DNA of 63,249 bases, filler included, from Platydemus manokwari (Eukaryota), in assembly GCA_037951405.1 (NCBI GenBank). It is 5 parts of 5 records of this genome, joined end to end, with 100 filler letters (N's around TTAATTAATTAA, not from the genome) between each part and the next. Parts side by side here need not be neighbours in the genome. Positions count along the whole stretch, not along the records: positions 49,973 to 63,249 come from JBBMOY011771395.1; 4 more parts are not named here. One strand, given 5' to 3'. A model generated the notes under the pieces. The model was not told the DNA's origin, searched no databases, and worked only from the letters and a program-made list of their open reading frames with translations. Shown here piece after piece: positions 49,973 through 62,040 of the stretch. The first letter of the stretch is position 1. Every line of letters begins with the position of its first letter. The translations under genes and the position numbers were made by a program.

Positions 49973-51080
49973 ATTATCCCAAGACATATTTTCATTAAAT
50001 TGATATTCTATCCATCTTTCTAATTTATCAATTGAACAACCTAAATATTGCACTGATATATAAGATTTATTACCCATTAAAGAATTTTGAATATTATTTG
50101 ATATACTTTTTCTAAATTTATATTGTGGATCAGTTTGGTATCTATTGTTCTGATATTCAACTATTTTTATGAAAACATAAATTTTATCAATACCATGTTT
50201 AATAGCTTCACAAACCTCCATGTGTTTTCTTTTTCTTACTACTTTCTGAAACACATGTGGTTGTAGTTGATAATAATTCAGCTCCTACACCACAATACAA
50301 AGTAATTATTGGTAAAAGACCTATTCCTGAAATAGTAGATAAAAGTATTGCTGAAACTGTTAGTATTCCAGAAACAACTAAAATTGAATATTTCAAAGTA
50401 CTATCTATTTTTGTCTATTTATTTTTTAATTTATTATAGTGGGATAGTAATTCTTCTAAAACTTCTTTCTCATTCATAAAATTTTCAATCTTAAGCTGAT
50501 TTATTTTTGATGTTAATCGATCGTTTTCATAATCTAAGTCACTTGGGGCTGATCCAGACCTAAATTCATCAAGTTTTGAATAGAATTTTGCATTCTCATT
50601 TTTATTTTCATTAGATGAATCATCGATAATTTTTTTAATTAAAATTTGATGAAAATTCGTTAAAGGTATCTCCATTCAAAACTTTGTGTATTCGAGATCT
50701 AAGTAATTTTCTAAAAATAACTTCTTAAGATCATCATAAGTGAAAGTCTTTAATAATTTATTAAAAATCAAAAGTTCCAAAAGAATATCTTTTGTGGGCT
50801 TATGTAGAAAAATATTACTAATAAATAAATTTATCTCAAACACGAAATCAGATTCTTGAATCATACATATTTGCAATTTTTTATGTTTTCTACGAAAATT
50901 TTTTTCTAAAGTAAAATCACCACCTACTCCAATGTTCGATTTTTTACTATTCCAATAACAATTCCAATCTGTTGGATGTAAATTATAATTATATTTTACA
51001 TATTTTTCATAATTTTTAGGAAGGTCGTCCTTAAAAATTATATTGTCAAAAATATAACAAGTGGAATAATTTTTTGTATT
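49973..51080 (-). mobile_element. Maverick/Polinton- or large-DNA-virus-like segment A (degenerate, intronless, tightly packed ORFs)
   Basis: HNH/endonuclease-VII-like RYQTDPQYKFRKSISNNIQNSL.GNKS...YLGCSIDKLERWIEYQFNENMSWDN. A hydrophobic-hairpin plus basic-tail ORF (SGILTVSAILLSTISGIGLLP...KKKK.H) resembles the membrane-active accessory protein of Mavericks/adintoviruses. Confidence 0.62.
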
Positions 51081-51090
51081 ACAAAAATCA

Positions 51091-51250
51091 ATGACGGTCA
51101 AGGAATTGAAATTGTAAATTGATGAAAAGGTTGGAATCAGGCCAAATAAACTTGACATTTCAAGAACAAATATCAGAAGATGAATGCACATTGGGTGAAT
51201 ACGGAATACGCGATAAATCTGTTATAAATGTGATAACGACAATGAGTGAA
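51091..51250 (+). pseudogene. Truncated ubiquitin-like domain pseudogene paralogous to the 56.3-58.0 kb gene
   Basis: MTVKELKL*IDEKVGIRPNK/LTFQEQISEDECTLGEYGIRDKSVINVIT; contains a stop and a frameshift, and is closest to UBL3 (TLGECGIRNKSVINVVT). Confidence 0.8.
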
Positions 51251-58038: not shown

Positions 58039-58869
58039 AGGTATTCGTGAATCCAATCTATATACTTAACAATGAATTATATTTATATATCACTGAATTT
58101 AAATTTTAAAAATCACTTTGTCATTTATCGATTTCTAGTGATTGATATGGCTCATAAAATGCAAGTACACAACAACAATTTCAAAACATCTTGTCTTTAT
58201 TATATTTTATGTTATGTATTATGTGCTATGAATTGCTATAGAATTGATGAGATAAATATAAAACAATAGTGAAGCATGCCAAATGATGACAGAATAATAA
58301 AGACGTAATAATCAATAACAAAATGGATTCATTTTACAAATGTTTAATATATAGCTATTATATTGCATATATTAGGAATTTAAAATTAAAACAAATAAAT
58401 AGAATTATAAAATGTATTTACAAACTGTTATGGAAAATATACTTTCAATTAAATACAGATTTAAGAACTTGATGAACAGTCTCAATATATATTATGTACT
58501 CATCATTTTAGTCAGATTACTTGCCACTTGCCATTTTCTTTGACATGTGTGTCAGTAATTATCTGACATTTATGTAGATTTACAAAAATTGATAAAAAAA
58601 TTGTTCTCTTTTATTGGTCACATTCAATTTTGATAATACGGTTCTTGGTCTAAGATAAAGATTTGAGGCAGAATCAAAATAAATGACTAAAGTTTTAAAA
58701 TACATCATTTAACGTAAAATTATTTACTCAAAACCGTGCTGGAATTCCTTATCGATGTTCAGTCGCGTGTAGAATTCCCACCATCTCGATGACCCAATTA
58801 TTGCTTCATTAGCTGATTGTCAGCTCCGCCTTGATTTTCTGTTTTCTAGCTTCGACCGACCTTCAAAAT

Positions 58870-61800
58870 CAAACTAACCACAATTTTTATTTTTTGAAAA
58901 TATAAATTTCTTATAATTTAAACCCCATCAATTAGTTAAAAACATTTCGAATGCTACAACTGACTGATTTAATTATAATAATAATTTGTTTTAATTTAAG
59001 AAAAGTTTAACTTCTAAATCTATAAATTTATAAGTTATTTTTTTAGTTTGGTAAACTTCTTTAATAATGTAGATGTTTCTTGAAAATTTATGGTTTTTTC
59101 TTTGAGAAATATTATAACTTTTAAAATTTTTTTAGATTTTTTATATTCATGAGTTAAGAAATCATTACTGTATAACATTGTATATATATGTAGGGATTGG
59201 ATTATTTCGTAAAATAAATTTTATTATTTAATTAACATTTGTATTTTTAATAATCTTGTTTTGTTTTTCATCAATTGCTTTTAAATTTTGATTCGTAACT
59301 AACAAACGCTTATTTATATTTTCCTGTTTTCCCTCAATAGCTTTTAATTTTACATATCCTCCTAACTAACTCTTATTTTCATCATCAATAGCTAATTGTT
59401 GTTTGCTTTGATTTTCAGTAACTGGTTTTAGTAATAGTTTAAAAAATTCCGCAATACCTTGATTTATTAAAATCTTTGAATATTGTTTTTCTTCAGATTC
59501 TGTGTTTAATTTTTTTTAAATCTATAATCTTTCTTCAATCCTTTTTTTATATCAAAACTGTTCATTTCTTCATATAAAATTTGAGATGATTAAAGTAACA
59601 TAAGTTACATAAACCTATATTACTTGCTCCTAGTCTCGGGTCACAAGCACACTCAAATTTGTTTTTCTGATCAGGGTATCTAATATTTATATCTATCACC
59701 GACAACTCATCGTCAGTATAAACATCGTATCGAATTTTATTTGGATCCATTTTTATAAATCTTTATTTAAAATATTCTTTATTTTTGTAATGTCAGGGTA
59801 TAACTCAAGGGTATATGAAAATGTTTTTTTTTATTTTTAAATAGATGACACAACCCGTAAAACCTCACCGGATATGAAATTAAAAAACTTTAAACCATTA
59901 TCTATTTTACTCCATTTATTTTTAATTTACTATAATATTTACTTTTAATGTATCGTTGTCATAACCAAGATAATATGGACTCATATTTGGAGCATCTGAT
60001 GTAGCACTTAAAATTATCAAGGTTGGGATAAAGTTTTATCAGTCAATATAAACTCCAATTGACTTACTATTTGATGGTCTATCAGGAAAAATAATTCCAC
60101 CAAATAAATTAATTTCATGTGGAGTATTAAATTCTTTAAGAAATCAATTATTTAAATCAATTTATTTAACCCAATATCTGATGATTTATTAAATCCATAA
60201 ATTACTAATCTAGGATTAATACTCAAGACATATTTTTTTCATATAAGGAAAAGAACATTTATCAATACATATATATTATCTACACCATAATTATTTTCCA
60301 GAAAAACAGTTCCACCTTTTATTCCAATAGAAATTCCTTTTTACCAAGATATTTAAAAAAACTACAAAATAAATTTATAAATTTTATACCTCCAACCACT
60401 CGATTAAATTCTGGTTCATAAGTAAAATTAACACGAATTCCTATATTTTTATATTTGCCATTATATTATTCCCAAAAACAATACCACTAATTTACATCGG
60501 ATTTTTTTGTTACCTATCTTAAGATATTTTCCAAGATGTTTAGATGGATTATCATTAATTGATTCAGATTTTATTTGTTTTTCTGATTTCTTATTCAAAA
60601 TTATTTTTAATTTCTTCAATACATTTTTAAAGATATTTCTCATTTACACATGAAAATCATTTTCTGGATTTCTTAACGTTGTTATTTTGTAAATGTTAAA
60701 TCATACATTACCCCTCATACAATTTTCTTCCTTATTAATATATTTTCTATCATGAATTTGTTCTCTAGCATTAATCATTTCTTGAACATCGCTTATATTG
60801 TTTAATGAAAAATTTTTAAATTTTTATATTATCAAAAACTTTTATCTGTTATTGAACAGTTAACATTTATTACCTTAAGCTCAGATGAAGTAATATAAAA
60901 GTTAGTTAATTAGTTAAATATAATTAATAAATAGTGTTTTGATAACTGTTCCTAAATTTTTTACTCATTAACCTATTGCCAAGGTTTTGTGTGTTTACCA
61001 TTTTTTTCAATGTATTTTTCATCATCAAATAGGGTTATTCCATATTTTCTTATTAATAATAATATATTTTATTTTATATATTTATAAAAAATAAATTTAA
61101 TCTTATATAAAATTAAATTTGAATTAAAACTTTAATTCATTTAAATATCTCACAATAGATGTAAAAAGATATTACTTGATTATTATAATAATTGAATCAT
61201 ATAAATTTTTAAAAATGAATTTCTGTGCGTACCTTTCCTTTTTATATGAATCCCTTTTGTTTTCCAAAAATTTGAAATAACCCACCAATAGATTTGTTGA
61301 TATTCATGGTTTTTCCAAATATTTCGAAATAACCCACCAATAAATTTATTGATGTTTATGTTCTTCACAAAAAAATATTTTTAAATTCTCAATTTTTTTC
61401 TAACTATAATAATGATAATAATAATATTTATAATAATAATATTAATAATATTGATAATAATAATGATAATAACAATGATAATAATAATAATAATTCTACA
61501 TACAAACTCGGTGAGTGGAGAAATTTTCAACGAACATACTCAGTGTCTCGATAATTTCAAATTTAATCGATAACGATTTGCATGTTTTGAAAATCGTTAA
61601 CATGATTGTGTGTTATGCTATTGTTTAAGTGAATTTGAATCGAGCACATATTTGGAAGGGTATTGAGAAGTGTTTTGAAGGGGTTTCGAGCCTGAATTAA
61701 ATAAAATTTATAACTTTTGATTTACTGAACTGATTTTATTAAATTATATATCAAATTGATGGGAATTCAATGGGGAAATTAAATAAGAACATTTACATAT

Positions 61801-62040
61801 AAATTTCCGAATTCTAGTAAATTCCAATTGCCATTAAGCTTGAATAAATCTTCTAACTTTTGTGGAAAATCTTATTAATTAAATGTTCCCTTGATTTTTT
61901 ATGAGAGATTAATCCTCTTTTATTTTTAAAATATTTATTACACACTTCAAAATGAAATTCAAAATTGGGTTCATTCATTTTTAATGAATAATTTTTAATT
62001 AGAAAGTATTTTATTACTTTAATATCTAATAAAAACACAG
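58870..62040 (-). mobile_element. Maverick/large-DNA-virus-like segment C (degenerate)
   Basis: Packed Lys/Asn/Ile-rich intronless ORF remnants; RPB1-clamp-like ORF at 59562-59750; C2H2-like F(H)FEVCNKYFKNKRGLISHKKSREH at 61853-62038; LGY(D/E)NDTLKVNI repeat shared with segment B. Confidence 0.5.

Follow-up and report, generated by a model that had tools for sequence, protein, structure and literature searches.

Mavericks, or Polintons, are described by a core gene set (10.1101/2022.07.12.499685) and by their capsid genes (PMC4028283). For nematodes, the former source reports intron-bearing Maverick cargo genes with N-terminal ubiquitin-like (UBL) domains, a core gene lying within 6 kb for only 47 of 235 of them. 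Clusters of PIWI-interacting RNA (piRNA) in planarians are unistrand; pseudogenes and Polintons abound in one type, with Polintons annotated mostly in the sense orientation, and it is long terminal repeat (LTR) elements that occupy the antisense-rich clusters (10.64898/2026.01.28.702291). Here we describe a locus of Platydemus manokwari (assembly GCA_037951405.1) in which copies of a multi-UBL gene alternate with Maverick-derived blocks. It lies in a window of 63,249 nucleotides, the whole stretch of DNA that was analysed, which consists of five parts joined with filler. The last part (49973-63249) is one entire contig, JBBMOY011771395.1, of 13,277 bp and 25% G+C. Positions are those of the window, and other contigs are designated by L numbers. 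The assembly was made from short reads and comprises 911 Mb in 1.99 million contigs; therefore, long-range structure cannot be read from it.

The mosaic of UBL and Maverick-derived DNA is real, and it is probably a broken host multi-UBL gene amid decayed Mavericks, its alternation resulting from one head-to-tail duplication and later deletions. The Maverick DNA at this locus is likely passive. The original prediction, made from the sequence, gave the order as virus-like block A, a UBL fragment, UBL 3' flank copies 1 and 2, block B, a multi-UBL gene, flank 3, and block C, and this order is borne out by self-comparison (Table 1): 50527-51078 in A matches 53683-54247 in B at 91% including gaps, and 52685-53597 in flank 2 matches 58045-58864 in flank 3 at 89% and 87% including gaps. 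Flank 1 is just 68-72% like the other two and belongs to another paralogue lineage (86% to L001, 90% to L007). Contigs of run X1, which may itself be the source of the assembly and hence is not independent evidence, cross the joint between flank 3 and C (58596-59068) with 0 differences, cover both frameshifts of the UBL gene with no difference, and reach 30 bases across the joint between A and the UBL fragment. The joint between flanks 1 and 2 is spanned by one X1 contig that has two differences near 52694 and reaches 58 bases or more to either side; at 98% likeness there is a coverage hole at 52683-52723.

Blocks A, B and C are debris of a high-copy Maverick/Polinton family, for which a first look at the genome gave 1298 candidates with block B and 2168 with block C. 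Pfam and PHROGs searches of the window's own virus-like open reading frames (ORFs) returned a weak tail-fibre match (E 6e-5) and a zinc finger, and nothing else. Because the frames in the window are too broken for Pfam, the family identity was taken from longer copies. Since contigs of the family hold the core genes, it conforms to the core gene list in 10.1101/2022.07.12.499685 and PMC4028283. A protein-primed type-B DNA polymerase (L021:1185-1700; Atlas 0.97 to DNA_pol_B_2 clusters, 17-22% of members) lies on a contig that also carries a homologue of A and B; the polymerase fragments have no Pfam match. An rve integrase (L195:5561-5965; PF00665, E 1e-10, over the cut-off) shares its contig with protease/penton-like DNA homologous to the family of block B. 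The double-jelly-roll capsid PF21738 has 76 matches in the genome (E 6.5e-19 in L184), and 15 of 20 fetched capsid contigs match the A/B/C family library by blastn; contigs of this group also carry the integrase and the ATPase. An adenain-type protease is found at L022:2995-3363 (Atlas 0.97; Preplasmiviricota; Peptidase_C5 in 14-15% of members), with which window positions 55025-55210 align at 60%. The A32/FtsK ATPase is represented by a fragment, L200:974-1393, matching Pox_A32 at E 1.1e-4 and 22.2 bits, just below the cut-off of 22.8; its C-terminal piece has no useful match among solved structures. Between the protease and capsid genes of L022 lie ORFs with no Pfam match that are candidate penton genes by their position and a motif. 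A putative HNH-like gene, also with no Pfam match and labelled from a motif, is convergent with the polymerase gene in this family, their tails overlapping (L022:302-658, L035:3331-3687).

The Maverick pieces in the window are internal parts of at least two subfamilies (84-93% and ~71% to other copies). No element-like inverted ends were found within the contig, so these pieces are without termini. A word-based protein search with ORF-Y gave no match. The 660 bp at 59183-59845 were considered as a separate small element and rejected, their homologues continuing into Maverick genes.

Several features of the repeated blocks point to local duplication. A and B have in common a deletion within ORF-Y that leaves 13 and 22 nt between anchors, where 11 of 11 other copies have 237-272 nt. 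The two blocks match one another best (94.0-96.6% of sites, the runner-up reaching 85-87% over the left half and 94-94.5% over the right), flanks 2 and 3 are alike at 94.0% and 90.7% of sites, and the two pairs differ at a similar 3-9% of sites. Two units can be drawn, 49973-53600 and 53601-58864, both opening on the Maverick segment with this deletion and closing on the truncated flank; the simplest reading is therefore a single head-to-tail duplication joined at 53600/53601. The duplicated unit would have run from the Maverick fragment through the UBL 3' flank and may have held at least two UBL genes; copy 1 would have lost most of its Maverick DNA and both gene bodies, leaving the fragment, flank 1 and flank 2, and copy 2 would have lost its first gene and retained the second, which then decayed. 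With the virus-like DNA assigned to a Maverick family and with A/B and flanks 2/3 locally duplicated, the proposal that a UBL cluster was invaded by, and co-amplified with, a Maverick is supported. Maverick pieces are co-duplicated with UBL flanks elsewhere as well (L016/L108/L052, L001/L106 and L003/L007/L011/L055). Two more copies of the flank 2/3 lineage are present at L050:1046-1597 and L004:1085-1250 (86-96% identity), and the local cluster is therefore likely larger than the contig shows. The stretches L016:1-1253 and L108:1906-3153 are 91% identical and include a Maverick fibre-like piece; each is downstream of a UBL gene, but the orientations are opposite, as would suit a stretch lying between convergent copies.

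Both long flanks had been said to stop sharing homology at one point, where virus-like DNA begins. Flanks 2 and 3 do stop at the same point (..CGACCGAC), within 3 bp, but this point lies inside a separate dispersed repeat, which makes up the last ~220 bp of both flanks, occurs on at least 22 other contigs and continues beyond the common end in 9 of 9 fetched copies. Past the common end come a polymerase/HNH tail after flank 2 and an integrase-like piece after flank 3. The flank ends were also considered as a Maverick terminus; this was ruled out, as both are inside another repeat and joined to internal genes. The dispersed repeat (53380-53600 and 58645-58864) is unclassified and has a higher G+C content.

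The UBL part of the mosaic contains six stretches at 56296-58035 and one at 51122-51247 that match Pfam ubiquitin, five of them over the curated cut-off, with UBL4 and the 51122-51247 fragment under it. The gene had been described as full; the window copy is broken in domains 4 and 5 by insertions and frameshifts. Relative to L004, its exon 4 begins with ~90 extra bases, the reading frame shifts near 57277 and again near 57574, and 57392-57489 is an insertion that forms a perfect 45-nt hairpin, as from a template switch. In searches of the genome in which the best 40 candidates were scored per search, paralogues or their flanks were found on about 45 other contigs. The family has 6-8 divergent UBL domains, one per exon. 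Two genes, in L003 (8 domains) and L005 (7), can be spliced in frame end to end, and the other 8 of 10 tested have at least one joint that lacks a frame-keeping intron or are cut by contig ends. Intact or near-intact genes of 6-8 UBL domains were noted at L003:2679-4935, L005:1723-3628 (further exons to L040:276), L008, L010 and L012; the second intron is recurrently of the GC-AG type in several copies, and the 16-kb L005 contig holds a cluster of more divergent UBL genes. For domains 1-3, the ratio of nonsynonymous to synonymous substitution rates (dN/dS) falls within 0.29-0.78 for 28 of 28 pairs, with the largest values where the pair includes a broken copy, and is about 0.5 for the family.

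Among the frame-keeping joints listed, Gly-Gly occurs at only one (window exon 2-3), and none is found at the C-terminus; since linkers mostly lack it, the chain ends without it and the repeats are divergent, these genes are not polyubiquitin. Ubiquitin gives the best solved-structure matches of the domains, and identity to the best polyubiquitin-like library matches is ~43%. A scan of 1.84 billion proteins found many unnamed divergent UBL arrays and, among the matches listed, none above 44% identity; arrays of this architecture are thus known, and none of those listed is a close relative of the family. A word-based protein search with two UBL domains gave no match. No paper on this UBL family, or on UBL arrays tied to Mavericks outside nematodes, was found in searches of listings and abstract openings outside subscription journals. 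The product predicted for intact paralogues is a non-cleavable chain of 6-8 divergent ubiquitin folds, likely a binder or decoy in ubiquitin signalling, with birth-and-death turnover of the genes.

Contact between the two kinds of DNA was measured with a library of 28 Maverick segments, counting matches of at least 80 bases; 16 contigs chosen by likeness to UBL-flanking Mavericks (L161-L176) and L118 were kept out of the library to avoid bias, and the kinase and TRAF controls were the top 40 matches of each search, not random contigs. Maverick matches occur on 16 of 46 UBL stretches versus 3 of 40 kinase contigs (p=0.003) and 10 of 40 TRAF contigs (p=0.36). The share of bases is 6.4% for UBL, 2.9% for TRAF and 0.9% for kinase contigs (UBL versus kinase, p=5e-5). 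UBL genes thus have about seven times the contact of kinase genes with Maverick DNA, together with a recurring polymerase-end joint described below. A library from capsid-selected contigs alone gave 14/46, 9/40 and 2/40 for UBL, TRAF and kinase. Further controls had Maverick DNA on 2 of 9 contigs chosen by an unrelated repeat and on none of the 4 other stretches of the window. UBL contigs with a common co-duplicated Maverick fragment are not independent in these counts, and collapsing such fragments by hand (L016/L108/L052; L001/L106; L007 with L003/L011/L055) left about 12 of 42. An earlier enrichment test (11/42 UBL, 2/40 kinase and 5/40 TRAF), whose library lacked capsid, integrase and ATPase, was replaced. 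The TRAF genes (RING, zf-TRAF, MATH) are themselves expanded, with at least 150 loci among 400 candidates (for example, L042:587-2033). This expansion and the low G+C suggest, in the light of PMC6824462, a planarian-type flatworm as host.

Some observations weigh against a single duplication of a host gene in passive Maverick debris. The model requires at least three later deletions. It also leaves unexplained the near-coincidence of the ends of flanks 2 and 3 (within 3 bp), which continue into different Maverick genes; as speculation, matching flank ends would result if the end at a break had been copied back upstream before being rejoined. The joint between flank 2 and B (53600) is crossed by none of the pieces listed (8 of 35) in a second X1 comparison at 98% likeness, in which no loose end is listed there either. 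Maverick DNA takes up a larger share of bases on UBL than on TRAF contigs (permutation p=0.03). Finally, in L003 a polymerase end lies upstream of the UBL gene and HNH-like and ORF-X pieces downstream, in one orientation and in the order of the young family, as if the gene were inside an element.

This last arrangement would fit the possibility, which we consider unlikely, that the multi-UBL gene was captured by an older Maverick subfamily, just downstream of the polymerase gene, and amplified by it, in which case the window and the paralogues nearest to it would be decayed cargo. Exon 1 is preceded, ~700 bp upstream and on its own strand, by the 3' end of a polymerase gene, stop included, in L003, L007, L011 and L055 (joints with the UBL 5' flank at L003:1890-2300, L007:1-400, L011:880-1075 and L055:617-1100); this end is partly present in L001, and a remnant of the joint is at 60880-61100 in the window, on the minus strand. 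The UBL cargo of nematode Mavericks is a precedent, as is its distance from core genes (only 47 of 235 cargo genes with one within 6 kb; 10.1101/2022.07.12.499685). Against the suggestion of cargo, taken as a general rule, a UBL domain is found in 0 of 60 Maverick-selected contigs (298 kb), although a low number would also result if carriers were a small minority of elements, and no inverted termini enclose the UBL gene in the contig. Maverick neighbours also vary: other paralogues adjoin capsid DNA (L002, L014, L111, L106) or ORF-X (the window), and the more distant L005, L008, L012 and L017 have no match to the 28-segment library. That the L003 gene interrupts one element was tested and not confirmed, as the polymerase 3' end is adjacent in 0 of 10 closest relatives of the downstream HNH piece and HNH follows the polymerase end in 0 of 6 closest relatives of the upstream piece. 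The UBL DNA tree likewise lacks one supported clade of polymerase-linked copies. A simpler account of the shared polymerase joint is a single old insertion upstream of an ancestral gene, followed by co-duplication. The old polymerase 3' end could have given upstream sequence to this UBL subfamily.

Fixed cargo shares one difficulty with the antisense viral-fragment trap that had also been suggested: the position and strand of Maverick DNA vary among UBL loci, which argues against both. As a one-strand piRNA source, the locus would turn Maverick fragments into antisense piRNAs by read-through from the UBL gene, which we judge improbable. The virus-like ORFs had been placed on the minus strand and the UBLs on the plus strand, correctly for 49973-62040, where 22 of 22 Maverick protein matches are minus and thus antisense to the UBL gene; over the whole contig 22 of 24 translated matches are minus, the two plus ones being capsid (62499-62701, outside 49973-62040). 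Planarian clusters, unistrand and in one type rich in pseudogenes and Polintons, would be in keeping with such a source, but Polintons in them are mostly sense and the antisense-rich ones hold LTR elements (10.64898/2026.01.28.702291). Because A and B are one event and Maverick genes are co-oriented, the strand pattern amounts to just two or three independent draws, and beside UBL genes elsewhere in the genome 21 of 32 Maverick protein matches run in the sense direction of the gene and 11 of 32 antisense. The window could have piRNA output like any such locus; there is no sign of a trap built on antisense orientation.

It is similarly doubtful, and to us very unlikely, that one internally deleted Maverick derivative inserted twice, giving A and B separately, with the flanks from an unrelated UBL duplication. 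The abundance of the family in the first-look candidates and the unequal spacings (A to B 3.2 kb, flank 2 to flank 3 5.4 kb) would suit such insertions; against them, the deletion is in 0 of 11 other copies, neither A nor B has element ends, and the A/B and flank 2/3 pairs are similar in age. An assembly or haplotype artefact, for which the short-read contigs and highly repetitive surroundings might speak, is scarcely credible, as the copies differ at 3-9% of sites and by private indels and X1 contigs cross the joint of flank 3 and C cleanly, with less firm support at those of A with the fragment and of flank 1 with flank 2.

Table 1. Features of the UBL-Maverick mosaic and adjoining DNA, in window positions
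Feature	Position	Strand
Maverick block A: HNH-like gene piece, ORF-X, ORF-Y with ~250-bp internal deletion; runs off contig start	49973-51078	-
Fragment of a broken L001-like UBL paralogue with parts of its last two exons; ~6 bases common with A at joint	51071-51330	+
UBL 3' flank copy 1, different paralogue lineage	51331-52684	+
UBL 3' flank copy 2, its gene absent; truncated dispersed repeat over the final ~220 bp	52685-53600	+
Overlapping 3' tails of Maverick polymerase (+) and HNH-like gene (-); putative duplication joint at left end	53601-53683	.
Maverick block B: ORF-X tail, ORF-Y with the deletion of A, fibre-like gene, adenain-type protease piece	53683-55200	-
ORF-X piece, another Maverick subfamily	55195-55551	-
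UBL remnant (55555-55760, common to L011) and UBL 5' flank (from 55771)	55555-56295	+
Six-UBL gene, one domain per exon; phase-2 introns of ~50 nt; domains 1-3 and 6 open, 4 and 5 broken	56296-58038	+
Perfect 45-nt inverted repeat in exon 4, an inverted copy of the exon's own end	57392-57489	.
UBL 3' flank copy 3, ending (58645-58864) in the truncated dispersed repeat also seen in copy 2	58041-58864	+
Integrase-like Maverick piece; translated match 59089-59184; left part aligns weakly	58865-59184	-
Maverick block C: ORF-Z/ORF-V (83-87% to family copies), then older-subfamily ORF-X, ORF-Y and fibre-like pieces (~71%)	59183-60823	-
Old-subfamily polymerase 3' end, then short stretch like distal UBL 5' flank of L007/L011	60880-61100	-
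Repeat of ~380 bp in high copy number (489 candidates), adjoining Maverick genes in several contigs	61490-61871	.
C2H2 zinc-finger piece, like ORF adjoining the ~380-bp repeat in Maverick contig L193	61853-62053	-
Major capsid gene piece, outside 49973-62040; strand of the UBL gene	62463-62702	+

Other features were noted around the mosaic. The ~380-bp repeat lies behind an AAT run and beside Maverick genes in L175, L176, L193 and L200, and it may be a subterminal part of the element. The end of the contig (62347-63249) has a 75% match to the UBL contig L055 and contains, besides the capsid piece, a frame that by eye resembles LTR-retrotransposon pol. In another stretch of the window, 47724-48275 is an exon of a core-2/I-branching glycosyltransferase (PF02485).

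If the duplication reading holds, this locus is an ordinary case of turnover of an expanded gene family in transposon-rich DNA. Were the cargo reading true, it would extend the nematode link between Mavericks and UBL domains to a second animal group and to pure UBL arrays, which could act as ubiquitin decoys, and it would offer a testable route of gene amplification.

Compared with described systems, the family resembles Mavericks/Polintons in that its contigs hold a type-B polymerase, rve integrase, A32-like ATPase, C5-like protease, double-jelly-roll capsid and penton-like gene, whereas in the window at least two subfamilies are present, all as broken and scrambled pieces that lack termini. 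Like the nematode cargo, the genes here are intron-bearing, UBL-fold members of an expanded family near Maverick core genes. The nematode genes are WASP proteases and KRMA kinases with N-terminal UBL domains, each with a catalytic domain and, in near-complete elements, always located between the integrase and the left terminal repeat (10.1101/2022.07.12.499685); those of the window family, in contrast, are pure UBL arrays with varied Maverick neighbours. The head-to-tail ubiquitin folds recall polyubiquitin of the UBB/UBC type, from which the window family differs in its divergent repeats, each on its own exon, and in linkers that mostly lack a Gly-Gly cleavage site.

The genes also resemble divergent multi-UBL proteins, unnamed arrays of 6-19 repeats that include many library proteins at 28-40% identity; of 10 looked up, 3 carry names ("ubiquitin C", a poplar hypothetical protein and a bare gene id). 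Tandem UBLs of the ISG15/FAT10 type are a further comparison. The genes here stand apart in that no listed match exceeds 44% identity and in that they have no C-terminal Gly-Gly for conjugation. More generally, gene clusters in transposon-rich DNA undergo birth and death, and the locus is like them in its intact and broken paralogues, its co-duplicated transposon fragments and its deletions with short shared ends, and the genome's TRAF family has similar Maverick contact; the locus differs from birth-and-death clusters in general in that the neighbouring debris is mostly Mavericks.

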